DNA of 64,000 nucleotides from Octopus vulgaris (Eukaryota): contig OX597816.1 in the NCBI GenBank assembly GCA_951406725.2, forward strand, positions 74,090,001 through 74,154,000, written 5' to 3'. Made by a program: the position numbers and the translations under genes. The notes beneath the pieces were generated by a model that searched no databases, was not told the DNA's origin, and was given only the letters and a program-made list of their open reading frames with translations. Positions 30,567 to 54,210 of the stretch are shown here, piece by piece; position 1 is the first letter of the stretch, and each line of letters opens with the position of its first letter.

Positions 30567-31257
30567 ACCCCGGACTTATTTTTTGTAAGCCTAGTACTTA
30601 TTCTATTGGTCTCTTTTGCCGAACCGCTAATTTATGACAGCATAAACACACCAACATCGGTTGTCAAGCGATGGTGGGCAGACAAACATACACACACACA
30701 CACACACAAATACGACAGGCTTCTTTCAGTTCCCATCTACCAAATCCACTCACAAGGCTTTGGTTGACCTGAGGGTATAGAAGACACTTGCCCAACATGC
30801 TATGCAGTGGAACTGAACACGGAACCATGTGGTTGGGAAGCAAGCTACTTACCACACAGCCATTCCTGTACCCATATATCTATGAGTGAGTGTATTTGTG
30901 TCTGTGTTTATTTCCCATTATCACTTGACAAGAGGTGTTGGTTTGTTAACATCCCTGTAACTTAGTGGTTCGGTAAAAGAGTGATAGAATAAGTACCAAT
31001 CTTTAAAAAGAAATAAGAACTGGAGTCATTTCATTTGACTAAAATTCTTCAAAGCGGTGCCCCAGCATGGCCTCAGTCTAATGACTGAAACTAGTAAACA
31101 ACAGAAGATAATGAAAGGAAACAGGAAGAGCAGAAATAAGAGGCAAGTAGAGAGAAGGGGACGGACAGAGATGACCAACATAGAAGAGAGGTTAAGGGGA
31201 AAAGAAGAGATAAAGAGAGAAGAGAGTGAAAATAAGGGGTGAAGCAGACCTACTCAC

Positions 31258-31506
31258 ATTAGCACCATAAACCATATGAACTCCTTGATAAACAATAAAT
31301 TGGGAATATTCTCCAAGGTAAGTCAAGATATCAGTGACATGGGCCCCAGTGGGAAGGTTTCGTAACCGTATACAATCGCGCTTGCGAGATGCAGAAATCA
31401 TGTTGTGTGGTACCAAAGGCCCAGATGTTGGATGTGTAGCTATCAGTGGTGGAAGAGCAGTTTCCTGTTGTTCAGGGTTCCTTGGGTCCATGCTACGGTT
31501 TAGCAC
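31258..31506 (-). CDS. ESRP: ESRP exon E (linker and first half of qRRM3)
   Basis: ttgtag|GTGCTA...GCTAAT|gtgag; 249 nt; VLNRSMD...RDCIRLRNLPTGAHVTDILTYLGEYSQFIVYQGVHMVYGAN. Confidence 0.95.
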
Positions 31507-33677
31507 CTACAACAAACAAAACAACATTGTATAGAGATTTATCTTGGTTAAACTTAGCCAGGTGCCTTGTAGTATTTGGAGGAAATTCCTTCTTCTATTG
31601 GTAAACATTTTATATAAGTAATTGTTACATTATGAACTCTCTAACATTCAGTGCAACTGTTTCACTTTTTTTCTGTATCCTATTGGTTCTTTTAAAGGTC
31701 AAGTTAGCACCACATTCTTTTGAAGATCTTAGTAATTAACTTAGAGTCACAATGTGTCTAATGTCTCGGTGAGTAACAACAGGCTAGATATAATAGAAAT
31801 AGTATTGGTTTCAAAATTTGGCTCAAGGCCAGCAATTTTAAGGGAGAGTGCTAGTTGATTACATTGACCCCAGAGCATAACTGGTACTATTTTATCGCCC
31901 CCCCCCCCTCCAAATGATGAAAGGCAAAATCAACCTCAGCAGAATTTGAACTCAGAACATAAAGATGGACAAAATGCCACTTAGAATTTTGCCTGGCATG
32001 CTAACAATTCTTTTCTACATTAGGCACAAGGCCTGAAATTTTTTTTTTGGGGGGGGGCAGTCGATTTGGTCGACAGCAGTACGCAACTGGTACTTAATTT
32101 ATTAACCCCGAAAAGATGAAAGGCAAAGTCAACCTTGGCAGAATTTGAACTCAGAATGTAAAACACAGACAAAATACACTTGGCGTGCTAACATTTCTGA
32201 CAGCTTACTGACCTAAATAGAAATAATATTAATCTCTGTTATGGTAATTACTTTGCTTTCTTCCAAACAGTCAACATTAAACAGATATATGTATGTGGTT
32301 GTGTGTATTTAGAACCAGCAGTCTCTGTCAACAAATATGATCTAGTAATTTACACTATGCTTTCACTCATTGTTTTAGGTGCCTGTATAGTCACAAGCAG
32401 TCATAAGATACCTTGTTGACTCAGTCACCCTTTAACCCAGCAGCATGTCCAGGAAGAGAGAGGGAGAGAGAGAGAGAGATGCATTTCTTGTTGGACAGAC
32501 TGGAGCAATATAAAATGAATTGAATCTTTGCTCAAGAGTACAATGCACTGAAGCCTGGTCCTAGAATTGAAGACTTGATATAATTATGAGCTGAATAACC
32601 TAACTCCTAGGCCTTGTATCTTCACCCACACCCACACAGACAAGCAGATCTGTAGATGCATGTGTAATATTCCAAGACATTTTGGACATCAAAATACAAA
32701 AACATGAAGTCTCCACTTTCTTAATTAACCTTAGATATAGTACCTGAAACTTTGGTATGAAATTTTCAGTTTTCATTACCAAATATGGTAATTTAAAATG
32801 AAGTCATCATCGTCATCATTATCATTATTGTCATATAACATCTGCTCTCCATGCTGGCATGGGTTGGATGGTTTGACCAGGACTGGCAAACCAGGAGGCT
32901 GCATCAGGCTCCAGTCTGATTTGGCATGGTTTCTACAGCTTGATGCCCTTCCTAACACCAACCACTCTGAGAGTATAGTGGGTGCTTTTACGTACCACCG
33001 GCATGGGAGTCAGTCAGACGGCACTGGCATCAACCATGCTTGAATGGTGCTATTTATGTGCCACTGACAAGGGGGCCAGTCAGGTGGCACTGGCATCTGC
33101 AATGACTGCGATTTCACTCAGTTCAACAGGTCTTCACAAGCATAGCATATTGCCCAGCCACTGAAGGGTGCTTTTGAATGGGCCAGTTGTGTGACACTGG
33201 CATCAGCCACGACTACAATCTCACTTGGCTTGCTGGGTCTTCTCAAGCAAGGCATATCTCCAAAGGTCTTGGTTGCCTGTCATTGCCTCTCTGAGGCCCA
33301 ACTTTCGAAGGTCAGCTTCAAAGTAAATAATAATAATTTTACTAAACATACCAGTTCTTCTACTTTTTTCTAATCACGTATTTTGATCAGTAATAGCTAC
33401 ATTAAACCAGTTTTCAGGAAATTTTTCTCATAATTTCTACGGGAGTTGACTCTTTTATGACCAGCTTTTTTTCACAGAACTTTCAAAATAAATAGAAATC
33501 TTTTCATTGAAATCTATCCTACAATATATATTTTTGTTCTCATTATCATGTTTTATCAGGTTTTATTGTGATAGTTGATGTAAATATTTTCTTTGTAACA
33601 ACAACCCAACCTATTTTGTAAGTCAATAGTCGTGGAAGGGTTATTCAGTGGTTGAACTGGGACAGCAACTCGCTTAC

Positions 33678-33893
33678 CTGCTGTACTTCGGCCATTGTGC
33701 TTTTGAACAGCTCGATGTAGCGTGTTCCCATCGTGTCTCGGTGTTTCTTAAGTGCCTTGGAAGCTTCTTCTTCTGAACTGAATAAAACAAAGGCATCTCC
33801 AGTCGATCGACCATCTGGATAATAAACAAACAGAATGCCTTCTTCTCCATCAAGGACATTGCAAGGATTAGGTTCTCGGGTAAAAAATTCCAG
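33678..33893 (-). CDS. ESRP: ESRP exon D (qRRM2)
   Basis: cttgtag|CTGGAA...CAGCAG|gtaag; 216 nt; [72 protein letters not shown]; preceded by a ~20.2 kb intron. Confidence 0.96.
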
Positions 33894-35029
33894 CTACAAG
33901 AAAAGAAGAAACAAAGGAGATTCAGAATATATTATAAAAAGGAAAATTAAAGGGTGTGGGGTAAAGAACAAAAGGAAGCCAGTCTGATTGTATGAGTTAA
34001 TGCTACAAGAAGCCCGCTTTCACCTGAAATTGTTAACACACTAGCACAGATCCAGGTTATTTAGAAAGTATATCTGCAACCATGTCAGCTTGTAAATGAA
34101 GAGTATATATTTAGAGGGGGCCGTTATTATTGTTGAACAAAACAAAACACCCTTGTAGTTTATTTCCAAGAAAGACAAGCATTAATCGATAAAAAACTAA
34201 AAGGATTATCAGAAACAGAAGAGAATATACCATTTTATTACATAGGACAATCGTATGTCTCAGAGAGGAGGCTTATAATGTTGAGGTCATTAAAGATAAG
34301 TTGTATAACAAGTTAATTCACTGAAGCTTCTGGAATTTTATGAGATGAAGAAATATAAACACTCTTTTCATGGTCCTTTTTCAGAAACAAAAAAAAGGAT
34401 GAATTTCCTCTCATTCTACTATTACAGACTTTATTCTAGATATTCCATCTCTATTATAAATATTTTTACATTCCTTGCCCTTTGGTGCGTTTCTATTTCT
34501 ACACTCCTGTTAATGTACATTGCCTGCCTGCCTGCATTCATAAATACATACATACATAACCAGATTGAAGACCAAAATATTAAAAAAACAACCAAAGTAT
34601 TAAAAACAAAAGTAAAAAAGGTTCCAGACCATTTTGCAGCAATGGAAGGAAACGGAATTTAACTGACCCCTGCAGAAATCTGAATAATGAGACCAGCGTC
34701 AAATTTTCCTACTCTCTACATAGTTTCAATTCTTTAGTTTATTTTAGACTTCCCAGTCAAGACCATGCTGGAACATCCCTCATTATTGTCTTACAAAATT
34801 ATCACTTACACCTGATGAATTTTAATGAACTCCTGTGGCTAACAAACCCTTCATGATCAATAATTATGTAATTAATTATTTCTTACATATATTTTCTTAA
34901 ATTTTGATGAAAAAGAATAGAGCTGAGACTAGTAAATTCCTGTTTGTAAATTATTGAACTATTCTCAGTAAAAAAAAAAAAAGAGCAAGAAATGGTTTTA
35001 TTCTGAATTTGCTGTTTGAAAAGTATCCG

Positions 35030-35960
35030 CTAAGTGACATAATTGATGTTTTGGTCGTATTACGATTTAATTAACTCGCTCTTTGACATAACTAATCCTC
35101 TGGTCACATTATGACATAATTAGTTCATTAGTTACTCACTTAATATAATTGACCCTTTGGTTACACAGTGATATTAATTTACCCATTGATCAGCCTACAG
35201 CTTAATTAATTTATTCCCTGTTTACAATGGTTATTCTTTGACATAACTCACTGATCACTCTAAGATGTAATTAAAACATTAAACACTCTAGATATGTTTA
35301 ACCCATTAGTCACTCTTTGTCATAATTAACTCATTGGTTATTCTCAGACATAAATAACCCACTGGTAACTCTACAACATAACTACCCCATTGGTAATGGT
35401 GCAATTATACACAATGACCACTCCTTGGTCATTCTATGCTGTAGTTAACCGATTGATCACACTATTATATTTATCCTATTTCGGAGCTATAAGTTATCAT
35501 TATTTATTTACTCTTACATTGTTATTTGTAGTAATAAACTGGTGAATTTCCAGGCAGTATTATATTTTTAACACTGTGGACACTACCAGATTGAATGGTA
35601 CTGCCCAAGTATCAAAACCATAATGACATCTGTTTGGACAGCTGATGATGGGAATGCACATATGCAAGATTCTGAATTCATTATATCTTAGTCTTGTTAT
35701 TCTGGGTTATTCTTCATTTTTGTAACCTAATTAAGCTTGGACAGTGCTTAGATTCTGGTGCCTAGTTTTGAGAAGTTCTGTGGTATACAGTTAGCTCAGT
35801 GGTCACTCTATAATTAGCCCACTAACCTAATTATCCACTGGTCACTATGGTGCAATTAACTCTCAATCATGCTATAGAATAGTTAACCCATTTGTTACTA
35901 CTCTTTGACATAATTAACCTCAGGACACACTGATATAATTAACGCCCTACTTACATTATG
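35030..35960. repeat. Degenerate ~28-29 bp tandem repeat
   Basis: Recurrent GACATAATTAACCCATTGGTCACTCTAT-like units in two blocks (35030-35470, 35790-35960). Confidence 0.75.
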
Positions 35961-36924
35961 ATTTGCTTAATTGTTGAGTGATAGAAAAATGGAAACAGTA
36001 AAAATATCAATTTTGACCAAACAGGCCAATATAAGTTCCTGTGAGTTATCAAAAGCTGATAGATCACAGTTCCAGCAGATATTGCCAATAAGGCTCAGTG
36101 TGTCAGAAGCTAAATACACTTCACTCGATATTGAATAAAGCATCAAGGAAACTTCACTATTCAATCTATCTGCAGTGATTTTAATATACTACCAAAGTCT
36201 CAAACAAAGAAAAACGAAAGAATATTATAAAGAAAATAGTCCTCTGCTTAAAGAAATAGATATTTGCTGTATAAAAACATTTACCACTACAAAAATAGCT
36301 GGTATCTATCTAAATTAGAAAAAAAAAAGGTATTTATATAAGAAAAAGACAGGTATCTACATAACAAAAACAAGCACCTATGTATCAAAAGATGGCTGTA
36401 TTCCATATACAGAAGAGGTATCTATGTAAGGAAGAGATGTCTATATAAAAAGCAGAGTGTTTTCGTTCTCAAATGGGCAGAACAAGCAAAAATTTGGTTA
36501 ATAGATAAACCCACAACCTTTTAAATGAATTAGCAAAGAAGCAAAGGAATTCACTTGAAGATTAAAAGAACCCATTTTTAGTATCAGATCCTTAGCCTGG
36601 ATGTGTGCTAGTATAAAATCCAACTAAATATTGGTAAAAAAAGTCAAAAAATAAGTAAATAAAAGACATGAAGTATTAAACACCATAGTCCCAAAACTAC
36701 CACCGCCCGCACACCAATGAAACCGCGCCTCACTAATGTAGTAGAACTGGAGAAACTGGCATCAAACGGAACCTTGCAAATGGCCAAACACAGTGTGACA
36801 ATGTTAGCACAAACATTGATTATAAAAAGTTGACCATTTGTTGTGCCGGCACCGATACTGCCATAGGTAAAAAATCCGATCCACAGCCAGTTATACCTGA
36901 TAATTCCTGACCCTATCCACTTAC

Positions 36925-36975
36925 CTGGGTGCAGTTTTAGCTTTACAATAGCTTAAGCTCAATTTAGTCAGGGCG
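36925..36975 (-). other. Candidate 51-nt poison (PTC) cassette exon in ESRP intron C-D
   Basis: ctaac branch-like motif, tattttatgttcctttcag|CGCCCTGACTAA...CACCCAG|gtaagt; TAA is codon 4 in the phase-0 frame. Confidence 0.6.
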
Positions 36976-37949
36976 CTGAAAGGAACATAAAATAGTTAGA
37001 TAATTAAGTGGTCGCCATTTTCAGTATTGTTGTCAATGGCATTAAACCAAAAGACAACTTTTGACATTACAAGATGCTTCCTACAAGTGAAGAAATCCAT
37101 AACAATTCACTATTTTTCATAGTATATTCCATCTTTAGATGTTTTAGATTCCAATTCATTTATGTTCATTGAATTCTTCCACAGGTAGAGGAATCTGTTT
37201 CTTGGAGGTCAAAGTTTCAATGAAAATTCTTCAAGATTCAAAAGTGTCTTTTGTCTGATGAATCTATTGTTTTTCATTTTTTTTTTTTTTTTTTTGGTAT
37301 TTTCACTGTAAAATGCCGAACCAAATTCTAGACTTATCATGGGTTCATTTTTCTTTTTTCTTTCTTTCTCTTTCTTTTAATTTTTTTTATAATCTTTGTT
37401 GAATAAAATTTGATTGGACTAAAACAAATACTAATTCTCGTTAAAAAAAAATTAAGTATGCCAAGCTTTGGCAATTCTTTAGATGATAAAACAAATAAAA
37501 AAAGAATTGGTAAATGTGAAAAATACAAAAAAGAAAAAGACAGATGTAAGTACCAGTACAGAAATGTTATAGTTTTTTTTTATATGATATTCTGAAAATA
37601 ACCAAAGAATTAAATCTCCAAGACAATGAAAAACAGTGAATAGTCAAATCAAAACTAATCAAAGAGTGGTATAAAGAAGTTCTATTTTGGGATTGAAAGT
37701 TAAATTCTTTATTTTATGCATTTTATATTGCAAATGCTGAATAAGACCATTGTTGTTCATAGATTTCCAAAGACGAAAATTTCCTTGGAAATCTAATTCC
37801 AGAGAGACAAACATCACTGGTCCATTAAGTAGAGTTACAAGACAAGGTATGTGGAACACAATGAGGTAAAATAAGTACAATGGGATATAAAGTACCTGGA
37901 TTTTCATTTGGAAGTACCTGTTGATCAATTTACTGCTCTCTCACATTAT

Positions 37950-39154
37950 ATCATCATCATCATCATCATCGTTTAGCGTCCGTTTTCCATGCTAGCATGG
38001 GTTGGACGGTTCTACTGGGGTCTGTGAAGCCAGAAGGCTTCATCAGGCCCAGTCAAATCTGGCAGTGTTTCTACGGCTGGATGCCCTTCCTAACGCCAAC
38101 CACTCCGTGAGTGTAGTGGGTGCTTTTTACGTGCCACCCGCACTGGTGCCAGACAGAGCTGGCAAACGGCCACGAACGGATGGTGCTTTTTATGTGCCAC
38201 CGGCACGAGGGCCAGGCGAGGCTGGCAACGGACACGAAACGGGGCGGTGCTGGCAACGGTCGCGAAACGGAAAGTTCTCTTACATGCCACCGGCACTGGT
38301 AACACATCTGCAATTTCCATTGATCGATTTCCATTGATCGATTTCGATTCTGATCGTCACTTGCCTCAACGGGTCTTCACAAGCAGAGTTTTGACATGCC
38401 ACCGGCACTGGTAGCACATCCGCAATTTCCATTGATCGATTTCGATTCTGATCCTCACTTGCCTCATCACGTCTTCACAAGTAGAGTTTTGTGTCCCAAG
38501 AAGGGAAGGTATGCATACGTAGGCTGGCTCCATCCCATGTAGAAGGCCACGGGTTATGGACTCACTTGTCCTGCCGGGTCTTCTCGCGCACAGCACACTT
38601 CCAGAGGTCTCGGTCTCTAGTCATTTCCTCAGTGAGACCTAAAGTTCGAAGGTCGTGCTTCACCACCTCGTCCCAGGTTTTCCTGGGTCTGCCTCTTCCA
38701 CAGGTTCCCTCAACCGCTAGGGTGTGGCACTTTTTCACACAACTATCTTCATCCATTCTCGCCACATGACCATACCAGCGCAAACGTCTCTCTTGCACAC
38801 CACAACTGATGCTTCTTAGGTTCAGCTTTTCTCTCAAGGTACTTACACTCTGCCGAGTGTGAGTACCGGCATTACACATCCATCGGAGCATACTGGCTTC
38901 ATTTCTTGCGAGCTTACGCATATCCTCAGCAGTCACGGCCCATGTTTCACTGCCATGTAGCATGGCTGTTCGTACACACGCATCATACAGTCTGCCTTTC
39001 ACTCTGTGCGAGAGGCCTTTTGTCACCAGCAGAGGTAAGAGCTCTCTGAACTTTGCCCAAGCTATTCTTACTCTAGCAGTTACACTTTCAGCACACCCGC
39101 CCCCGCTGCTGACTTGGTCACCTAGGTAACGGAAACTATCAACTATTTCTAGTT

Positions 39155-39158
<4 letters not shown>
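37950..39158 (-). mobile_element. 5'-truncated RTE-clade LINE (ORF C-terminus, 3'UTR and (GAT)n tail)
   Basis: Open frame 39158-38562 EKLEIVDSFRYLGD...YDACVRTAMLHGSETW...RRLRWYGHVARM...GRGRPRKTW..RDRDLWK is typical of the RTE post-RT region; 3'UTR ends in a tgatga repeat. Confidence 0.92.
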
Positions 39159-39210
<52 letters not shown>

Positions 39211-39376
39211 ATATATATGTATATGTATGTATATATATGCAAATAAGTAACAAGGATGTCCAGGTCTGGACATTCTTGTTACTTATTTGCTTTTTATTCA
39301 CCTAACTTTGAGCTGTGTGGACAATACCAGACTGACATGGTGCCTCCACTTAAGTACCTAATTCAACTGAATCTTA

Positions 39377-39414
<38 letters not shown>

Positions 39415-41832
39415 CTTTTGTGTGTATATATATATATACACACATAAATATGCATATATATACACACATACACACCCACATATATATATTTATATATACA
39501 TACACATGCACACACACATATATACATATATGTCCCCTAAATCCTTCTTCAGCCGAGTGAGCTTAATGTTGCAGGTGCTCATGGGTGCTGTCGCCACATA
39601 TAAAGCACCTATGCTGATGCCACATAAAAAAGTCATGCAGTCCACTCTGCAAAGTGGTTGCCATTAAGAAGAGCTTCCAGCCATAGAAACCATGTCAAAA
39701 CAGACGGAGAGCCTGGCCACTATGGAAAACAGACATTAAATGACAATGATGATGATGATGACCTACATCAAAATATATATACTTTCAGACACATACTTAT
39801 GGACATACACACTCACATTCATACATACACACATATACGCAAACATACACACATACATTCGAAAACTTAGGAAGGGCATCCAGCTGTAGAAACTTTGCCA
39901 GATCAGATTGGAGCCTGGTGAAGCCTACTGCCTTGCCAGCCCTCTATCAAACCGTCCAACCCATGCCAGCATGGAAAATGGACGTTAAACGACGACGATG
40001 AAGAAGACAATCTATCAATCCATCCACACACACACACAGACACATATATTCATCTATTCATTTGGTTAAATAATTGCCTTACTACCAATCTCAAGAAGCC
40101 AGAAAGAACATACCTAATCAAGTGATATACAGATACATGCAATCAAAAGCACTGTCAAAATGTGTAAAACATTCATAAAGTCCAGTATGCAATAAGATCT
40201 ATGCTTGCTCCCCCCATATGTGCCTGTGCACATGCACTTAATACATGCATTATGAGCTTCCATCTCCTACATTCCAGTTACACTTTTTATCTCAACACCT
40301 TTGTCTTTCATTAATCAGTTACACTGAAGGGAGTTTGTCTCATTTCTCTCCAAACTCCACAAATCTCTGAAGAGCCATGTCACTCAACTAGGCAACAGCA
40401 CATTTTGTATATAATCATTGAACAATCGGTCCTTCACTTTGAAAGAGAGACCCTTGATGATTATAGTTCTGCACCAGAATCTTTCCTTGTTCTTACATTG
40501 CTTACATTTCCAGTGCTAAAGGGATCTCCCAAATAACAGAAGCTATCAACAACCTACTTCTAGAGGACTTTCTGACCATACGAATGAGGCTGGTGCCAGT
40601 GCCCCCTGATTGGCTCCCATGCCAGTGGCACATAAAAAGCACCATCTGAACTTGGCTGATGCCAGTACTCTCTGATTGGCTCCCATGCCAGTATCCTCTG
40701 ACTGACCCCCCCGTGCCGATGGCACATAAAAAGCACCATCCAAATGTGATCAATGCCAGGCCCGACTGACTGGTTCCTGTGCCGGTGGTACATAAAAAGT
40801 ACCCACTACACTCTCGGAGTACTTGGTGTGAGGAAGGGCATCAAGCTGTAGAAATATTGTCTGATCAGATTGGAGCCTGGTGCAGCTGCTGGCTCTCCAG
40901 ACCTCAGTCAAACTGTCCAACCCATGCCAACATGGAAAATGGACATTAAACAATCATGATGACAATGGAGTTAATCTCACATGGATTCTTACTGTTTTCA
41001 ACTCTTATGCATTTCTCATATCCGACACCTAACTTTATTGTCAACCTGTTTGTACTCCCACAAAATCCTTTGTGAGATGAAACTTTGCTATGATTACACT
41101 GTACGGAGTTCCTACCAACTCCTTTTCTGCATACTGAGTATAGCTACTGTCCTGTTTTCTTTCCAGCTAATTAAAATTTCAGCATTTGTTATGTTTCCTT
41201 TGAGACCTCTTAATTCTTGGTTTTGCTCCCAAATTTGGAACTTTCTTGCTAAATATTTGACTAATTCAACAAGAACAAGGTAATTGGCTTACAGGGGTAT
41301 ATACAGAGAACTGGTTGTAAATTCCCTTTTCATGGCAAGTGTTTGAGAAGACCTATCAGGCCAAGTAAAATCATAGCCACGGCAGATACCGGTGTAATGC
41401 AAATGGCACCCATGCCAATGGCACATAAAAGCACTCATTACACTCTCGTTGACGTTAGGAAGGGCATCCAGCCATAAAAAAAAAAACGTCAAATCAGACT
41501 GGAGTCTGGTGCAGCCTGCCAACTTGTCAGCCTTGCTCAAACTCCCCGATCCATGCCAGCATGGACAATGGATACTAAATGATGATGATGATGATCAGTG
41601 GGGTAAAAATTGAACCTTAATGTACACCAACTTGTATCTTGAATTGCTTGCTGATCACACTCCTTTCACCAAGCTGATGGCCTGAAAACTCTCTGAACCC
41701 ACTAGCAAAATTCAGAGTAGCATTAGACTGACTTGATATATATATATATATATATAACTCCAAGAAAGTTAGAGATTGTGAATCCAACCCACTAAGAGAT
41801 AATATCTATCTAATATACTGCTGGTAGAATGA

Positions 41833-41875
<43 letters not shown>

Positions 41876-44800
41876 TAGGGATGGTATTATTAAAATACCA
41901 TCACAAGTGGTAAGCGAATTATCAGCTGTACAGGCAAATTAATAAAATATACACATACAATATTAGATATGTACATATATACACAAGGCTACTACATGAG
42001 TACCTATATCGCTAATGATAGAAGTCAAAAAATACTTCTGTACCACTGAATAGTCACAAATCTATTACAGACTAGATAGGGAAATATATATATATATATA
42101 TCTTTTATCCTTTACTTTTTTCAGTCACAAGACTGTGGCCATGCTGGAGCACCACCTTGAAGAAGTTTTAGTTGAATGAATCAACCCCACTGCTAATTTT
42201 TTATTTTAAGCCTAATACTTATTCTATCAGTCCCTTTTGCTGAACCACTAAGTTACAGAGATGTAAATGCATGATCCCCGGTTGTCAAAAAGTGGTGGAG
42301 GACAAACAGAGACACAAAGACATACTCACACACACACACACATACAGTTTGTGTGTACCAAATCCCTTAAAAAGTAAAATATGTACCTGTGTGACTAGCA
42401 TAAAGTGTGTGTGTGTATATATATGTATGCATGTATATGTATATACATAAAAAGCACCATCTGAATGTGGCTGATGCCAGTACCACCTTGACTGGCTTCT
42501 GAGCTGGTGGCACGTAAAAGGCAGCAACCAATAATGGTCGTTGCCAGCCTCCTCTGGCCCCTGTGCCGGTGGCACGTAAAAAGCACCCACTACACTCTCA
42601 GAGTGGTTGGCGTTAGGAAGGGCACCCAGCTGTAGAAACACTGCCAGATCAGACTGGAGTCTGATGCAGCCTCCTGGCTTCCCAGACCCCAGTCGAACCG
42701 TCCAACCCATGCCAGCAGAGAAAACCGACGTTAAACGATGATGATACATGTAGGCATTGTAGGCAGATATCTAGGCTATAGAAGAAGACAATTGTCCAAG
42801 GTAACACACAATGGAACTGAACCTGGAACCACATGATATGAGTGCAAACTTCTTACTACACAGCCACGCCTATATAAATTTACTTATTCAACTCTTCGCT
42901 ACTTGATCAATGACTTCTGTTCTAAAATTAGCACAGTTCAATATGGATTCCTAACTTACATTGTTTAAATTGAATATAGTGTAGCAGGATTGCAGTTATT
43001 TCTAAACACCACAACATCATGCCACTCCACAAACTGTAAAATATTAAATAAGCTTATAGAAAATGGGAATAATAGTCATGAGAATAGAAACTGCCTTTTT
43101 ATGAGTCAACATACGTAAAATGCATTGAATAGAATGTGAGTGCATGTGTGTGTGTATGTGTATAGACAGAAATACAATTACGAGGTCAAATGCAATTATA
43201 AAGGTTCGTTCTCAGAGAAAAAAATTGTAAACGTGAGAAAAAAACATTGTATTGGAATGCAGGTTAATGTTTAATTGTTTTCTTTAGCTCTTTCAAAAGG
43301 ACATCTTTGTATTCTAAATAAGATGAAAAGATAGAGGGAGAAAAATAGAGAGAAAGATGGATAGTTAGTGGGAGAAAGGTAGATAGATAGCGAGAGAAAG
43401 ATAGATAGATGGTGAGAGAGAGGTGGGGGGAGATGTAGATAAAAAAATGAATTGGTGAAAGAAACAGAGTGAGGGTCATTTACTGGCCTCAATCATAGAA
43501 CTGTAGGCAAGATGAAGTCCCATTTCAAGGTTTTAAGTTAATGATGTTGGTATATATTCTTAAGCAAGGCTAGTGTTTGTGTTTATTGGTTTCTTTTTAT
43601 CAAATTGCTTTGAATAATTGCCAAATGAGTTGTTTGCTTGAGTAATTAGTAACATAAAGCTCAGAGTAATGAATCTTGAAGCTACAATTTCTGATAAAAC
43701 AAACAAGTTCTACCTTTTTGGTATAAAGCATTTATTTTCTTGTGAACACAAGAATTCACCATACCACACACACACACACACACACACATTTGATCATCAT
43801 CATCATCGTTCTGACATCCACTTTTCCTTGCATGCATGGGTTTGAGTTTATTGAAACAGATTTTCTACGACTGGATGCCCTTCCTGTCACCAACACTCAT
43901 CTATATCATCATCATCATTGTCGTTTAATGTCCGCTTTCCATGCTTGCATAGGTTGGATGGTTTGACTGAGGACTGGTGGGTCAGAAGGCTGCACCAGGC
44001 TTCGATCTGATTTAGAAATGTTTCTACAGGTGGATGCCCTTCCTAACGCTAACCACTACAAGAGTCTAGTGGGTGCTTTTACGTTCCACTTGCACGAGAG
44101 CCAGTCTGGCGGTTCTGGCAATAACTACGCTCATATGTTTTTCATGTGCTGTTAAGGTGACACTGGCAATGATCACGCTCGAATGGTGCTTTTTATGTGC
44201 TACTGGCACGGGAGCCAATCCGTGGCCATGGCAGCAATCATGCTTTGATGTGCTTTTAACATTCCACTGGCACGAATGCCAACCAGGCAATACTGTCATT
44301 GGCCACGTCAGCAATTTTGATTTTGTTTTCACTTGCCTCAATAGGTCTTTGCAAACAAAGTCTGTAATAAGTAATATTTCTTCATGGGCAAACATAATTT
44401 TGCAGAATATTGGAAATGAATGACACTGCTTGTATGACAGTGGACAATCATGTGACATCAAGGCACAACAACAATAACACACACACACAAAGGGCTTCTG
44501 TCAGTTTCCACCAACCAAATTCACTTCCAACACTTTGGTTGGGTCAGGGCTCCAGCAGAAAACTCTGGCACAAGGGGCCATACAGTGGCAAACTTCTTAA
44601 CCACACAGCCATGTCTGTCTCTCAGCTCTCCATAAAAGAGAGGGTCAACCACATTGTTCAGGATTGAATCCCACTGCATGACACCTTGGGCAAGTGTCTT
44701 ATAGCTCCAGGTTGACCAAAGCCTTGTGAATGGACTTGGTAGGCAGAAACTGAAAGAAGCTCGTAAATATATCATAACCATTATCATACTTTAATGTCCA

Positions 44801-45178
44801 TTTTCCAGCTTTTGTGTGTGTGTTAGCATGCACGTGTGTGTGTTCCCCCATCACCGCTTGTCAAATAGTCTTGGTTTATTTACATCCTCATAACATGGTG
44901 ATTCTGTAAAAGGTACCAATAGAATAAGTACCAAGGTTATAAAAAGAATAAAAAATTTAAGGCAGTACCCCAGTATGGCCACAGTCTAATGACTGAAACA
45001 AATAAAAGAAAAGAAAAGAGATAACAATGTTTATAAATAATTTCAGACTTTCTGGAATGTCCTAGAACAAGTGGTTTGAAACTTTTATTCCAGTATACTT
45101 TGGTGTACCCTTGACAAAGAATATTGGGTATCACAAAATAGACAAATAGTGGAAACCATAAAACAAACAATCTGTAAT

Positions 45179-45438
45179 TTGTAGTAAAGATTGTTTGCCA
45201 ACATAACATGGCAGTGCTGGTTTAGGACGAATGTTGTTGTAGTTTAGCCCCAGGAGACGTCGTGTCCAGCTGGCTATATGGCATGATCTGTGTCCTTATA
45301 TTTTCAAACAAGGGAATATAAGGACACAGGCTGTGTCATATAGCCAGCTGGAGATGATGTCTCCTGGGGCTAAATTACAGCAATATTTGTCCTAAACCAG
45401 GACTGCCATGTTATGTTGGCAAACAATCTTTACTACAA
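45179..45438. repeat. Long fold-back repeat (~120-bp arms)
   Basis: TTGTAGTAAAGATTGTTTGCCAACATAACATGGCAG ... CTGCCATGTTATGTTGGCAAACAATCTTTACTACAA; related element at 56250-56490. Confidence 0.9.
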
Positions 45439-45589
45439 AATACTGTTGCTGAATATCTCACCTTGTGAGATTTAGAAATAGTAATTTTCTTATCTGTAAT
45501 TTGTTGTCAATTAATTATAATTAACTAGAAGTCATGACTTCCAAACAAATCTCTTTATTAAAAATACTCTCTCTCTTTAGGTATCAAGT

Positions 45590-46140
45590 CCTAATGGGCA
45601 GTCATGTCCTGCTACAATTCCCTGTTCGTCAAGCTTGACATCCTTCTCCTTCCTCTGCTTCTTTTTCCAACAATATTTCTGATCATCGCTAAATTCTCCA
45701 GGCCTTCTTTCCTCATCACATAACCAAGAAATCTCAGTTGCTTGGCCTTTATCTCTTGAAGCAGTTTCCTACTTACTGCAACCTGGTTTGTCCATTACCA
45801 TCCTCAATATTCCCCTTTTGAACCACATTTCCCAGCTCTCAAAGCCCCTTCTCATTTCTGACAGTATAGACTACACCTCACTTCCATACAAGGTAGACAT
45901 AGCAGGTTAAAATACAGATTTTGATCTCGATGCTCAGACTACGGTTTCTCAAGAGGTTTTACAATTTTGAAAATGCAAATTTTGTCAGCACTATTTGTCT
46001 TTTGATTTCCATCACACATCTTCATCTTCTGGGATGAGAGTTCCAAGGTAGTTAAAGGACAACACCAGCTTAATGGTTCAATTGTTCACTTTCAGCATGC
46101 ACTTTGGGTTTCCCTTCTTTGTCACCACCATACACTCTCC
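45590..46140 (-). mobile_element. Old RTE LINE fragment
   Basis: Minus-strand remnants FNYLGTLI..DV..EIKRQI..KFAF, LYGSE, QLRFLGYVMRKEGLEN, KRSRGRRR with frameshifts. Confidence 0.7.
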
Positions 46141-49100
46141 CTCCTTGCCATATCAGTTGATGAAATTTTTATTTTTTAAATATTGTTTATTCAATGTAAG
46201 GTCATTGAAAAAATTTGGTTGTGACTATTTCAAACTTCCAACATTTTTATAAATGTATATCTCAGTAATTTCACATGTATACCCCTATATTTTCTCTGCC
46301 ATTTATGTCTATGCCCTCGCATACTGTCTATCCCTGATGAGTCTCACCCCAACTCATCTTTCTAACATGCTCCCCCTCCACCTGTGTTCATCACTCACTG
46401 CATGCTCCTCCTCCCTATCTCCCACTCTCATCAACCTACCTATTCACTCACTCTGTCCAATCTTCTGCACCGCCAACACATATTCATGACCAACATCTCT
46501 CTCTCTCTCTCTCCTCTTTCTCTCTCCTCTCTCTTTTTCTAATGGAGCAACCATGTATCACCTCTGCTGCAAGACACATGCTTCTGTCCCTCTATCATAC
46601 ATTAACTTCTCATCACCTGGTGTAAAGCCATCTCCCTCAATACTAACCCCACCTCTCACTACAATCAGCTGATGGGGTTCTTGTCTTGCAAGTTACTTGA
46701 TGACCTTACAAGTGCTGGTCACACATAAAAGACCTAGCACATTCAGTAAAGTGGTTGGTGTTAGGAAGGGCATCCAGCCATAGAAACCATGTGGATCTTC
46801 GCACAGGTCTTCAAAGGGGTCTCAGGAAGTAAGCATGCCTCCGTTCCTGAGCTAATTTTCCACTACATTTCTTAAAAATCATGGTAGAAGCTTTGGTGTC
46901 GGGACCACTCATGTCTAGAAACTGAGGCTGGGGATAAGCAAGGGCATGCTCCCTGTAGAAAATCCAGCTCCAAAAAGACCTCATGATAGCAAAAGAGAAT
47001 GGGCACCAGCCAGCCAGAAGGTTGGGGTGGGCTGCACCTGCCTATCTCAGTTGCTATGGCATTGAGGTTGTTCTGGCCACCTTTGTTAACGGGAACAAAA
47101 CCCGGATTTAAAACACTGGATAATGATGATGATGACGACATAGTCCTCTACCTCACTGGCTGCTGTTGAGCCATCCAACCTATGCCAGCATGGAAAACAC
47201 TAAAATGTGATGATGACGATGACCCTTGTTTGAAAACTTTGTGAATCAAATAATCAATAGAAAAAAATACAGTTTGACTTCCTATAATGGTTTTCTCTCT
47301 AATGCTACCACGCAAACAACGATGGCAAATTACAAGAGGGCCATTACAAAATTACTTCTTAAAACCCATTTATTTTTTACCTGGCTGCATAATATTAAAT
47401 ATTTGTTTTATTAACCTAAGTGAAACAACATGGGGAAGGGTGCAGAAACCTAGCAAAAGCAGAAGATAATAGGGGTTGTCATCACCCTTAACCCCCCCCC
47501 ACCGAAGTATTCCCCCCACTCCTATCCCAAACGCCAGTTTATTGGGTTTTATTTCTTTCTTTGTTAATGTTTGTTTACAAGACAGAGAAGTGCTTAATAA
47601 ACAAAGAGAGGAATTTGGACAGCAAGTCTCATATTGACCCAGTGTCAACAGTAAAAGGGTGGTGGGTGGGAGGAGGGATGTGCATTAAGCCAGCCAACCA
47701 ACCAAAGCAAATAAGGAGACTTGTGTTAATATTGCCTTTTTTCTCTCTGTCTCCCTCTGTCTCTCTCTCTGTCTCTCTCTCTCTCTTTCTTTCTCTCTCT
47801 TTCTCTCTCTCTCTCTCTTGTTCCCCAACCTTTAGACAAACAGAGTGTTTGTTGAAGTTTGAGTTTAAAGCAGGAAATAACTACAGGAACCAAGAAGAGA
47901 ATATTTTAGTGATGGTCACCAAAGGAATAAATAAATTGAAAAAACAAAAAACCCAGACATGTTTGAATTTTTAAGATTTTATCAAGATCAACGTAACCGT
48001 TTTTTTGTGCCGACCAACTTTACAAGTAATCTTCTTGGATTTTAACTATTTTCTTTCATCTTTTCTCTTTTATCTTTTACTTGTTTCAGTCATTAGACTG
48101 TGACCATGCTGGGGCACTGCCATGGGGTATTTTAGTTGAACTAATTAACCCCAGTACTTATTTTCTTTTTAAGCTTAATGCTTATTCTATTGGTCTCTTT
48201 TGCCAAACTGCTAAGCTTGATCCTCACAGTCTTTTAACAACCGGTGTTGGTGTGTTTTCATCCCTGTAACTTAAAAAAACAAGTACCAGAGCCTATTCAT
48301 TTGGCTAAAAATTAGATTGTAGCCCCAGCATGGCCACAGTCTAAAGATTGAAACAAGTAAAAGATAAAAGATTTAAATATAATGCCCTAGCTTGTTATAT
48401 ATTTAAATATAAGACATAGGCATAGGAGTGGCTGTGTGGTAAGAAGCTCACTTCCCATGGCTCCGGGTTCAGTCCCACTGAGTAACCAGAGCCTTGTGAG
48501 TGTACTTCATAGACAGAATCTGAAAGAAACCTGTTGTGTGTGTTTGTCCCCCCCACCATCATTTGACAACTGATGTTAGTGTGTTTCTGTCCCTGTAACT
48601 TAGCAGTTTGGCAAAAAGACTAATAGAATAAGTACTAGTCCTGGGGTCGATTTGTTTGACTAAAATTGTTGCTCCAGCATGGCTGCAGTCAAATGACTGA
48701 AGCAAGCCAAAGAATAGCCAGTCCGCCATTGCTTTCGTAGTAAAAATAGATCTTGTTTTAAAAGAACACACAAAAGCTCTTAACCATTCCTTTATATTTT
48801 CTTGAGCAAATTATTCCAGCTTTGGAAAATATCAGCAACCAACAACTCTAACAAATTTCCTGCTTATTCTTTAGTTCAGATCAAAATTGTATTTATACTA
48901 TTTTATGGTTTAAAAAAACAAAAAAAATAAAAGCTTTGCAGAATATGTCTCATGTCCTTTGCTAAAAAAATAAAACACCGTGACAAATTGAAGAAGAAGG
49001 GAAAATGTGTTTTTCTGTCATTCTCACCTCAAAAGGCTTTGTTTGTTTGTTTTTATAAATATAAAATGGAAGATAGAAAATATAATAATTCCTTCAAAAT

Positions 49101-52100
49101 TGCTAATAAAATTGCTATAAAGATTGTTCATCAAAGCGTAGGGTGAGTAATTAGAATATTAAGTTTATAAATGAGCCATTCAGTTCACCAAACCATATTA
49201 AATATAATGGTTGGCCATGATTATTCTGTAGCCAAACTGTAACAGGAATGAGGTGATCCTATTGGCCAACTGGTTTAATCATTTAATTTGTGAGGTGACA
49301 AAATTAGGTCGTCTGAGTCCCTAATATAATATACAGAAGTATGTCTTCAGAATATTGCTGTCTTTTGTAGTACTGAGACATAATGGCATTTAAGATACAC
49401 ATAAAAAAATGTCTTCTGCTGAAACAGACATCATCATCATCATTTAATGTCTGTATTTTACGTTGGAATATGTTGGATGGTTTGACAGGAGCTAACGAGC
49501 CAGATTTCTGTGTTGATCTCCAGTGTCTACATTAGCATGGTTTCTGTGGGTGGATGTCATTCTTAACCTATTAATGGCCAATTTTTTTTATTTAATTTAT
49601 TACCAAAAGTCTTTTTTTTTTATACAACTTTATCTGATACTAAATATATAAAAAAAAATTTGATTACAATACTTGAAAGACACTCCAAACTTGATGACTA
49701 ATTAAATATATCTCAGAAAAATACAGGTGTTACAGAAATATGATGGATTATCCTTCTGGTCCTAAAAAAAAGGACCATGGGTGCTAATGGGTTAATGAAA
49801 GCCACTTCACAGTGTGTGCTGGATGCTTTTTTTGTGGCACTGGTGCTAATGAAGTTACCAAGTAACTCACAGGATACGACCCCTTAACAAAGTGGTGGGG
49901 TGGCATGCAGTATAGAGGGAGATGGCTTTGTGCCAGGTGTTGAGAGGTTAAAGTATGATGGGGGCAGGTACAGGTGTCTTGCAGAAGAGGAGATACATGG
50001 CTACCCTAGTAGGAAAGGAAGAAAAGATGGTGGAGGTAAAGTGACAGACATATGGCTCAATGGTTAGGGTATATGGCTTGTGATTATGAAGTCATGAGTT
50101 CAATTCCTAGTGGTGTGTTGTGTCCTTGAGCAAGATACTTTATTTCATGTTGCTCCAGTCCTCTCAGCCAGCAAAGATGAATCTCCCTGAGAACTACATT
50201 AAGGGTGTGCATGTCTATGGCATGCTCAGTCACATTGATTTCACGAGCAGGCTGTTCTGTTGATTGAATCAACTGGTAGATTCATCATAACCAATGGAGT
50301 GCCAAGCAATTGCAAGCATTGAGGACAGGTCTCTGATTTCAGGATCACTCCCTCCCACCAGGCTCTATAAAGGGTCATAGGTATTTCCTTCCCTACTCAC
50401 TCTTAGCAGAGGTTACAATGTGAAACCTAATGCTAACATACAACACAATTAGTCAGTGTGTAATATAAAACATGTCACACAAAGTAGCAGGTATTTGTGA
50501 TACAAATCACATAACTGCACTGACTTAGTCTGTGGTACCACTTAAAGAGCTCAGTATTTAAATAAATTAATAAAATACTTGTAGATCATATAACTATAAG
50601 GTTTGTTTTACTGGAAGATGATTCATTGAAAAGATTTGCTGTTAGAATTCTTTGAACAAAAACAAAGGAAGCAAGGCAGCATTATTAATATTCAATTAGC
50701 AAACTGGGTTGTGGTATATTTGGTGTACTTGAGTGGCTGAGTATCTCCTCTATGTTAAGATAACTATCTCTGTCCCTTTATTATATTTGAACCTCTCACC
50801 TGGCACACACCCACTTCCCTTAGTTTCACTTCCTCTCTTCAGCTGGCAGATCTTTGTCGTGTTAGATTCTTGGTGACCCCAGTGGTGCTGGTGCCACGTA
50901 AAAAGCACTCTGTGCCAGTGCTGTGTAAAAGGCACCCAAGTCATTGCCATGTTAAAAGCACTCATGCCAGTGTCACATAAGAAGCAGCCATACTAGTGCC
51001 ACATATAAAGCAGCCAGCACATTCTGCAAAGTGGTTGACATTAGGAAGGGCATTCAGCCATAGAAACTATGCCAAAACAGACAACTGAAGCCCAGTGCAG
51101 TTCTCCCGCTTGTCAGATCCTGTCAATCCATCCAACCCATGCCACAATGGAAAATGGACATTAATCACCACTGCCAATTGTGACCAATTAATTACCTATA
51201 CCTGTGTCTCCATCATACTATAACCTCTCATCAGCTGGCACAAAACCACCTCCCTCAATGCTATTCCCACTCTCAGCTGAGGAGCCTTGTCTTGTGAGTT
51301 ACATGGAAACCTCACTGATGTTGGTGCCACGTAAAAAGTACCCAGTACACACTGTAAAGTGGTTGGCATTAAGAAGGGCATTCAGGCATAGAATGTAAGC
51401 CAAAACAGACACTGGAGATTGGTCCAGTCCTCTGGCTTGCCAGATCTTGTCCAACCAATGCTAGTATGAATATGGATGTTAAATGATGATAGTGATAATG
51501 ATGATGACAACACTCTTAATGATGAGAAATAAACAAGCATTAGCTTAATAATTAATTGTGGTCAAAATCTACAGAAGAAACAACCCTAGAAGTTTAAATA
51601 ATTAAAAACAGAATTCTGTAAGGAGTGTACTATATTTCTGGTCAGAGTAACAGTGTTTTAATCTTATGAGATCTCATCAGCAACACATAGTATAACAATT
51701 GCTGCCAGATCCTGGTTTAATTGATTGACCAGCTCTACAACCCTCTGATCATGAACTGAACACTCTCACCACTGGGCCACATCCTTCATACGAAGAAAAT
51801 GTTACACAATTTCATTCTTGCAGCCTATGAATGTTTGGTTTTGGGACTCAGCAAGACCTGAATTAATCCCACCATTGTCTCCTTGACTTAAGAACAAAAA
51901 ACAAAAAGGGAAAATGAAAGGTAATCACTGAACAACATTGCTCTTTCTTCATTATATAATTATTTCTAATTAGGCTTTTCATTCTCCCTGAATTAAATAT
52001 ATTAACAGCAGACACAGGCGTGGCTGTGTGGTAAGAAGTTTGCTTCTTAATCACATGGTTCTGGATTCATTCCCAGTGTGTTGTAGCTTGGGCAGATGTG

Positions 52101-54115
52101 TACTACTATAGCCTATGCCGACCAAAGTCTTGTGAGTGGATTTGGGAGACAGAAACTGAAAGAAGCCTGTCGTGTATGTGTGGCTTTGTGTCTGTGTTTG
52201 TCTTCCACTACCGAACGACAACTGGTGCTGGTATGTTTACATCCCAATAACTTAGTGGTTCAGCAAACGGGATCAATTGAATAAGTACTTGGGTCAATTC
52301 ATTTGACTAAACATTCTTTCAAGGCAATGCCCCAGTATAGCCACAGTCTAATGACTAAACAAGTAAAACATCATCATCATCATCACGATTATCATCATCA
52401 TTATCATTTTATCATCCATCTTTCCATGTTTGTATGGGTCAAAAAGTGTTTATTAAAGCAAATTTTCCGTGGTTGAATGCCCTTCCTGTCACCAACCCTC
52501 GCCCTTTTCCAAGGAAGGTCAGGTATGTTTTCACAGAACATCAGAAACAAATGACATTTATTTACAGCAATCACATGATGTCAAGACAAGGAGACACAAG
52601 CACACACACACACGACAAGCTTCTTTCAGTTTATGCCAATCAAATCCACTCACAAGGCTTTGGTTGACCCAGGGCTATATAAGACGATGCTGAAAGTACT
52701 ACACAGTGGGGCTGAACCTGAAGCCATGTAGTTAGGGAAGAAAATAATCTTAATCACACAGCCACAGACTATTCGATTTGCCAACATCAACAAAGGTAAA
52801 TAATTCTGTAAATTTTATGGCAAGGACCGTGGAGATTATATTCCACTGATGAGATCAGAATAATGCTGAAACATATTCACAATTGTCTCCTATATTTGAT
52901 GGAATAACCAAAATAATGTCATTGACTAATGTTGTTTTGTTTTCTTGTCACTGCATATTTATTTCTGCTAAGCATTTATTTAAATGTTAAAACTAACACA
53001 ATTATTGAATTTTTCTGCTCTGCTTATCCAATATGTAAGGAATTCCATTTTCTTACAGAAATGCCATTTATGCATTTACTGATTCATTCATAACTACCAT
53101 GACCTCAGTGGTGTACATATTTCACTGATAAGGTCTCAGGAGGTGGAAACATGTTCACAGTTATGTTCCTTGCTTGCTTGAAAATGAAAATTCTATTAGT
53201 CATTGACTAATACACACAGGAGGGGCTGTGTGGTTAGTAGCTTGCATACCAACTACATGGTTCCGTGTTAAGTCTCACTGCATGGCACCTTGGGCAAGTG
53301 TCTTCTACTATAGCCTCGGGTTGACCAAAGCCTTGTGAGTGGATTTGGTAGACGGAAACTGAAAGAAGCCCATCATATATATGTATACATATATATGTGT
53401 GTGTGTATATGTTTGTGTATTTGTGTTTATCCCCCAACCCCACCCCAACATCACTTGACAACTGATGCTGGTGCGTTTGCATCCCTGTAACTTAGTAGTT
53501 TGGCAAATGGAGACTGATAGAGTAAGTACTACGCTTACAAAGAATAAGTCCTGGGGTCGATTTGCTCAACTAAAGGCGGTGCTCCAGCATGGCCACAGTC
53601 AAAATGACTGAAATAAGTACAAGAATAAAAGAAGTTGCATGTATTGAATACCTGCCTATTCTTTGATACATTCCATCTGCCCATCCCTCCATTCATCTAT
53701 TCCTCTATCACTCCATCCATCCACCCATTCACCCTTACAACCATCCCACCATCTCTCCATTCATCTATCCATCCAGCCCCCTCCCTCCTTCTTTCCATCC
53801 ATCTTTTCAGCTCCCCCCACTCTCTCTCCATCCATTCATCCCTCTTTCCCTCCATCCATCCATCCATCCATTCATTCAGCAACCACACCCCATTCTTTCT
53901 CTCTCTCTCTCTCTCCCCTTCTCTCTCCATCCATCCATCCACCTCCCTGCATTTGTTTCTAGATAACATCTCAATGACCCTCCACACTTACATTAAATGT
54001 GTTTGCCCTAACCCACCAAGAACCCACCAAGAACACAAAATCCAATGACCAGCTGGGTTGACATTGGAGACAGCACAACAATAAAGGTATCAGAGTGGAC
54101 ATTCAGAGGACTTAC

Positions 54116-54210
54116 CACTTGTTGTACAGTTGCCGTGAAAGGTAATCCACGCATTCGTATAATCACTTGTCCTCCTCTGGATAAAAATGCTTGAGCTTCA
54201 AGATTATTTC
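54116..54210 (-). CDS. ESRP: ESRP exon C (linker and start of qRRM2)
   Basis: tttgcag|GAAAT...CAAGTG|gtaag; 95 nt; [31 protein letters not shown]; ends phase 0. Confidence 0.95.

Follow-up and report, generated by a model that had tools for sequence, protein, structure and literature searches.

In Octopus vulgaris, the intron that splits qRRM2 of the ESRP/fusilli gene very probably contains a real, unproductive exon of 51 nt, and this poison exon is probably ancient in Spiralia. The gene lies on the minus strand of the window, by which we mean the whole 64,000-nt stretch of DNA that was analysed (contig OX597816.1, positions 74,090,001 to 74,154,000). Among epithelial splicing regulators ESRP is the main one; that splicing factors can carry poison exons is a well-known principle. 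The splice signals of the octopus exon, its stop and its position in qRRM2 can be read directly, and a matching cassette is present in other spiralians. To a modest degree it also seems likely that ESRP itself promotes inclusion of the exon through GGU/UGG words downstream of it, which would be a negative feedback on the level of ESRP. The full historical reading is put forward tentatively, with slightly less than even confidence: an autoregulatory ESRP/fusilli poison exon may have resided in the qRRM2-splitting intron since the mollusc/annelid/rotifer ancestor, with its position, splice-site and GGU architecture kept and its sequence, length and frame turned over.

Anatomy of the exon and its host intron

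The first-pass annotation of this DNA had described a CTAAC motif, a polypyrimidine acceptor, a 51-nt exon (36975-36925) reading RPD and then a stop, and a CAG/GTAAGT donor (the slash marks the splice site), and had quoted several UGG/GGUG motifs farther on. All of these are present in the sequence (Table 1). Translated in the incoming phase-0 frame, the exon reads RPD-stop-IELKLL-stop-S-stop-NCTQ. Its donor is the sole [A/C]AGGTAAGT of the 20,222-nt intron, which interrupts the second RRM of ESRP. The downstream coding exon shares 94% identity with Argonauta ESRP and 100% with Octopus members of the same protein cluster, and has five matches in the genome, one of them full-length. In a Pfam scan of two short exon peptides the sole match was to RRM_1, below threshold.

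Table 1. Features of the qRRM2-splitting intron and its flanking exons (positions in the window)
Feature	Position	Strand	Remarks
Upstream constitutive ESRP exon	54116..54210	-	qRRM2 start, ends ...FTATVQQV, phase 0
Phase-0 intron splitting qRRM2	33894..54115	-	20,222 nt; position identical in all 21 complete-intron loci
Branch-point-like CTAAC (putative)	36995..36999	-	21 nt ahead of the exon
Pyrimidine tract and AG acceptor	36976..36993	-	ends TTTCAG, like bivalve- and most annelid-like loci; X1 record 7
Cassette exon with in-frame stops (very probable poison exon)	36925..36975	-	51 nt
First in-frame stop TAA	36964..36966	-	inside qRRM2, protein end ~340 residues in
Donor GTAAGT	36919..36924	-	X3 record 14 begins 30 nt before the donor
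G/U-rich downstream tract, candidate ESRP site	36680..36918	-	contig cover in 4/4 runs
Downstream half-intron, retained or slowly spliced segment	34360..36924	-	X1 contigs with gaps; 37106-37798 uncovered
Downstream constitutive exon, rest of qRRM2	33678..33893	-	

The island around the exon had been called non-repetitive, and this holds, a 1-kb stretch having one match in the genome (the search skips very common words). A dispersed repeat is ruled out by this single match and by a contig depth below 10 over 36413-37105, compared with tens of thousands at nearby repeats. Two such high-copy repeats lie at 31800-32250 and 32720-33180, with contig depths of tens of thousands or more in all four sequencing runs. 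The description of the island as relatively CpG-rich was too strong: its 8 CpG in 245 nt are matched by 7% of intron windows. In a recursive-splicing site with an RS-exon, the acceptor AG is directly followed by a GT donor; this explanation was rejected because CGC, not GT, follows the acceptor AG here. Rfam gave 0 matches at E 0.1 over 33900-38000, and the predicted RNA fold of 36670-37010 showed no special structure (z -0.91).

Two other parts of the gene deserve mention. A second TTTCAG..G/GTAAG candidate of 35 nt is found at 28436-28402 (minus strand), in the intron between 31257 and 27538; its inclusion is predicted to shift the frame and to give a stop in the following exon. A short exon at ~23616-23593 (minus strand), which encodes QSSSRNSQ, is present in the Octopus models P0114 and P0115 and missing from P0116. 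It has tandem AG acceptors (TAG CAG) and is an alternative microexon within the last RRM-like domain.

Cassettes in the same intron of other animals

Forty loci came out of a metagenome scan, and 35 of them have the complete exon; five weak ones (L037-L041) were set aside. The upstream exon is present in 23 of the 35, 21 with an intron at the identical position and 2 spliced, and absent from the other 12, in two of which the cassette is still visible. By best protein match, L002 and L003 are clam-like, L004 is mussel-like, L014, L020, L021, L026 and L028 are closest to Capitella, and L007 and L008 are Rotaria-like. Each of the eight complete bivalve- and annelid-like introns holds exactly one cassette of the pattern TTTCAG (or TTTCAACAG)..25-100 nt..G/GTAAG. 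The chance expectation is 0.005-0.045 per bivalve/annelid-like intron and 0.3 for the octopus intron, for a pattern that was fixed after the sequences had been seen; a reverse-strand control gave 0 patterns in 248,866 nt. L027, L028 and L030 are near-identical, which leaves roughly eight distinct sequences from four groups. Within each group the splice sites fall in conserved blocks, and in no group is any element kept better than the donor. Among the rotifer-like introns, a conserved TTGCAG is followed by an exon of 26-35 nt in 9 of 13 (four of the nine being near-identical); three others are only 59-81 nt long, and L015 keeps the acceptor without the donor. Translation of 18 candidates gave a stop every time: inside the exon in 7 of them and in the exon that follows in 11. 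This excludes a coding role only, since random intron pieces of such size would mostly break the frame too.

Other conserved segments were seen in these introns. The two clam-like loci share a second conserved block well downstream of the cassette (L002 intron 1260-1372, L003 intron 1278-1388), and the annelid-like introns have similar second blocks. L036 has, some 2,750 nt ahead of the downstream exon, a candidate TTGCAG..22 nt..GAG/GTAAGC that is followed by GCATTTGGG; it resembles the annelid-like cassettes and falls outside the strict pattern. Conservation of 72-80% extends over about 600 nt of rotifer-like intron past the cassette in L008-L010, L016-L018 and L032, where GCACGCGGGGAAAT and further GGG blocks occur.

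The octopus island gave nothing better than E 0.08 in a DNA similarity search against the 40 loci, no alignment was obtained between octopus DNA and the bivalve loci, the annelid-like loci or any other group, and MAFFT alignments across groups were uninformative. The case for a common origin therefore rests on position and architecture. These are shared, and DNA is conserved within groups but not between octopus and bivalves. The exon is thus unlike the ultraconserved poison exons: its length (26-87 nt among lineages) and sequence turn over, while its position and architecture stay. The first-pass annotation had proposed an element of cephalopod ESRP and had suggested aligning the intron among molluscs to look for a conservation peak. 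The element is indeed found in octopus, but it is not specific to cephalopods, as bivalve-, annelid- and rotifer-like loci also carry the cassette; conservation was found at the level of the cassette, which lies in the same intron of bivalve-like loci, and not at the level of alignable octopus-bivalve DNA.

At closer range, run X6, which carries another organism label, shows 32 differences in 945 nt over 36319-37263 (96.6% identity), compared with 159 in 2459 over four flanking pieces (p 0.0003); a fifth flanking piece, by the downstream exon, is conserved equally to the island (21 in 623). This last segment, 33865-34487, lies in the 620 nt ahead of the downstream acceptor and hints at further regulatory sequence.

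Protein sets provide another view of the junction. We compared 394 proteins spanning it and 173 with the downstream exon. P0138, a spliced 318-aa product over several exons that matches L004, ends in TAPQV-LEVC and a stop, which is the exact translation of the L004 cassette. The gene model P0273 of Mytilus edulis ends in QV-LLVR and a stop, resembling the L004 cassette, and the Mactra model P0319 ends in QV-PNGIHFIMVR and a stop, resembling those of L002 and L003; the cassette thereby accounts for some truncated bivalve gene models. Four Rotaria gene models contain a longer form, with INRVNHEIENT and a further 12 residues inserted in frame; this speaks for the acceptor though not for the stop. 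Of the 173 proteins that have the downstream exon, 141 are normal. P0300 reads MCAK/LEFF, compared with LRLQ/LEFF in two members of its cluster, and P0322 and P0325 read MK/LEFF. These three proteins, with K before LEFF and spliced further on, hint at a cassette donor joined to the next exon, but P0096 demonstrates that K before LEFF can also derive from the intron end. Most other odd protein endings represent genomic read-through. Among the best 120 of 1563 vertebrate ESRP proteins, no product ends at the junction. Since protein sets tend to leave out NMD isoforms, this negative result says little.

GGU/UGG words downstream and candidate regulators

In the mouse, ESRP1 binds to RNA rich in UGG, favours inclusion when it acts from the intron downstream, and binds its own pre-mRNA (PMC9550651). 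We assume that mollusc ESRP would have the motif preference of mouse ESRP1. The tract after the octopus donor has 8 GGUG/UGGU words, 6 of them within 36716-36681. To call it UGG-rich, as the first-pass annotation did, was an overstatement: 245 nt contain 10 TGG and 4 GGTG, counts that are reached by 6.5% and 2.2% of same-size intron windows, and the octopus tract taken alone does not exceed dinucleotide shuffles (p 0.19-0.58 for five UGG/GGU-type motifs).

The signal emerges when loci are taken together. In all nine octopus, bivalve- and annelid-like loci (9 of 9), the 250 nt after the cassette donor have more TGG/GGT than either the upstream flank or the remainder of the intron. They also have more than the stretch that follows the constitutive upstream donor in 7 of 8 loci, the exception being octopus (19 after the cassette donor versus 25). 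An 11-nt repeat and a GGAT repeat contribute part of the TGG/GGT richness of the octopus intron start (54110-53700, minus strand). Pooled GGTG/TGGT counts are 62 versus 39.1 expected for nine loci (none of 1500 dinucleotide shuffles reaches 62), 35 versus 23.6 for the five less related loci (p 0.017), and 27 versus 18.0 for the four loci without octopus (p 0.025). TGG alone is not enriched in the five-locus set (p 0.42), and the three rotifer loci examined have no UGG/GGU excess.

The activator role of ESRP is the weakest element of our explanation. A real poison exon could also be switched by another splicing factor, for example as a post-transcriptional shut-off of ESRP in non-epithelial tissues, and cross-regulation of AS-NMD exons is known (PMC3967051). 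We regard this as unlikely, though far from negligible. In its favour, the octopus tract alone lacks enrichment of ESRP words, GCAG, CATT and GCAGG match TGGT in enrichment across the pooled tracts, and the conserved blocks in the rotifer cassette loci are GGG-rich, not UGG-rich. Against such a factor stands the pooled excess of GGUG/UGGU on the activating side in mollusc and annelid-like loci, in which GGG is depleted (56 versus 75 expected in the pooled downstream tracts). GGG runs are preferred by hnRNP F/H. Under control by ESRP itself, a rise in ESRP would raise inclusion through the GGU/UGG words on the activating side and would lower the amount of productive mRNA.

The sole self-control of ESRP that we found in print alters the location of isoforms, not their amount (PMC9550651). 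There, as we infer here, ESRP acts on its own pre-mRNA with UGG words downstream, at exon 12's alternative 5' splice sites in mouse and human ESRP1. The exon 12 event alters nuclear versus cytoplasmic isoforms, whereas the octopus exon would lower the amount of protein; unlike that event, it lies in the qRRM2-splitting intron. The words 'nonsense' and 'NMD' are absent from the main text of PMC9550651. Term look-ups in PMC5703972, PMC12322889, PMC12179342, PMC8797185, PMC2265522 and 10.1101/2020.05.20.107375 turned up no ESRP poison exon. More generally, no poison exon of ESRP, fusilli or sym-2 was found in the literature searched, which covered abstracts and the main text of openly available papers.

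Probable use and predicted fate of the exon in octopus RNA

Contigs of four sequencing runs from four studies, presumed (not recorded) to be RNA, were compared over 31100-38000, which excludes the upstream exon. In Logan contigs all 31-mers are distinct (10.1101/2024.07.30.605881). Listings of contig joints and loose ends were swamped by high-copy repeats; splice use was instead read from the positions of contig ends, which were compared with a simulated 31-mer assembly graph built from model isoforms.

X1, X3 and X4 each have one record spanning both coding exons within this region without the intron between them, and the exon-skipping form is contiguous in X4. In X1, the first 28 letters of record 7 are unaligned and its alignment starts at 36976, which is the simulated signature of a junction from 54116 to 36975. 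In X3, record 14 aligns from its first letter at 36954, where the simulation places a contig start if paths branch at the donor. For both runs the main mRNA contig stops precisely at 33894; the simulation gives this end when a second path leads into the downstream exon, and such a path is needed to produce it. The extra depth in X3 (two bins, with 25.5 and 25.0 per base) agrees with pieces that span just 33865-33894 and, by depth bookkeeping, the intron just before 33893 is uncovered, so this path is not a long retained intron. A further 806 depth-letters in the bin of the cassette exon are unaccounted for by the listed record. X1 has cover past the donor to 36511 and over much of the half-intron down to 34360, none at 37106-37798, and neither residual depth for the full cassette nor any trace of it. 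Near the cassette, contigs of X4 cover 36907-36613 only; among the breaks listed for X4 and X6 there is none at either splice site, and X6 has an unspliced contig across both.

This geometry, together with the read-through of the donor in X1, indicates that both splice sites of the 51-nt exon are very likely used in octopus and that some transcripts which use the acceptor and read through the donor coexist with donor-using ones. The exon is internal and alternative and has both an acceptor and a donor: octopus contigs end as simulated, and use of the acceptor is seen directly in the mussel-like P0138. The earlier label of poison exon agrees with the octopus contig geometry, the same-intron cassettes elsewhere and the spliced or annotated bivalve products; it does not cover the part of the RNA that reads through the donor.

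Spliced into ESRP mRNA, the stop-carrying alternative exon would end translation three codons in, after about 340 residues, leaving the N-terminal domain and qRRM1. Its first TAA occupies exon bases 10-12, 39 nt from its own donor and 255 nt from the next junction, with more junctions after. A 55-nt NMD rule has been stated for mammals (PMC2265522), and the premature stop of the included form lies farther upstream than the 50-55 nt of this mammalian rule. With several exon junctions far downstream of the stop and a UPF1 gene in the genome, nonsense-mediated decay is the likely predicted fate of the included message. Acceptor-using transcripts that keep the 3-kb half-intron would meet the same stop and would thus be unproductive likewise.

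The main product might be such a transcript, nuclear or ended early, or else a short protein of the N-terminal domain and qRRM1. We consider this improbable, although X1, X3 and X4 all have contigs beyond the donor (those of X1 covering most of 36976-34360) and the half-intron contains 10 AATAAA/ATTAAA words. Moreover, the mussel-like P0278 begins inside the intron and is spliced downstream; a longest contig of 4,533 nt is listed for both P0278 and P0138, which are presumably on one contig. However, the donor is the element kept best in every group, the X3 geometry fits donor use, and P0300 and P0322/P0325 suggest that another exon is joined to the next, with the reservation about P0096 noted above. 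Decay itself would also leave the full cassette rarer than nuclear intermediates. Finally, we consider it very improbable that the exon is cryptic or reflects noise in the splicing of a long intron, with look-alikes elsewhere by chance. Chance would give some 0.3 patterns in an intron like the 20-kb one of octopus, a second one is found at 28436-28402 and the DNA does not align to bivalves, but all eight short mollusc- and annelid-like introns carry the cassette against the 0.005-0.045 expected, and the X6 island differs less than four of its five flanking pieces.

The real, unproductive exon that we favour has parallels in other splicing-factor genes. Unproductive splicing of SRSF5 is conserved across animals (PMC4379411, Lareau and Brenner 2015) and likewise consists of stop-producing alternative splicing with very long evolutionary retention; the octopus case differs in concerning ESRP, of the qRRM-type family, and in that decay is predicted. 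Exon 7 of hnRNP L, also an hnRNP-type factor, is a cassette with an in-frame stop leading to decay or a truncated protein (PMC6885243). The protein and the motif are different there, and self-regulation has been studied for hnRNP L, whereas it is proposed for octopus ESRP.

If true, feedback of this kind would be a concentration loop so far undescribed, in the literature searched, for the ESRP/fusilli family. The ESRP cassette is also an example of regulation retained without alignable DNA. As a 51-nt switch in one intron, with counterparts in molluscs and in annelid-like and rotifer-like loci, the exon may offer a handle on the dose control or shut-off of ESRP in invertebrates.
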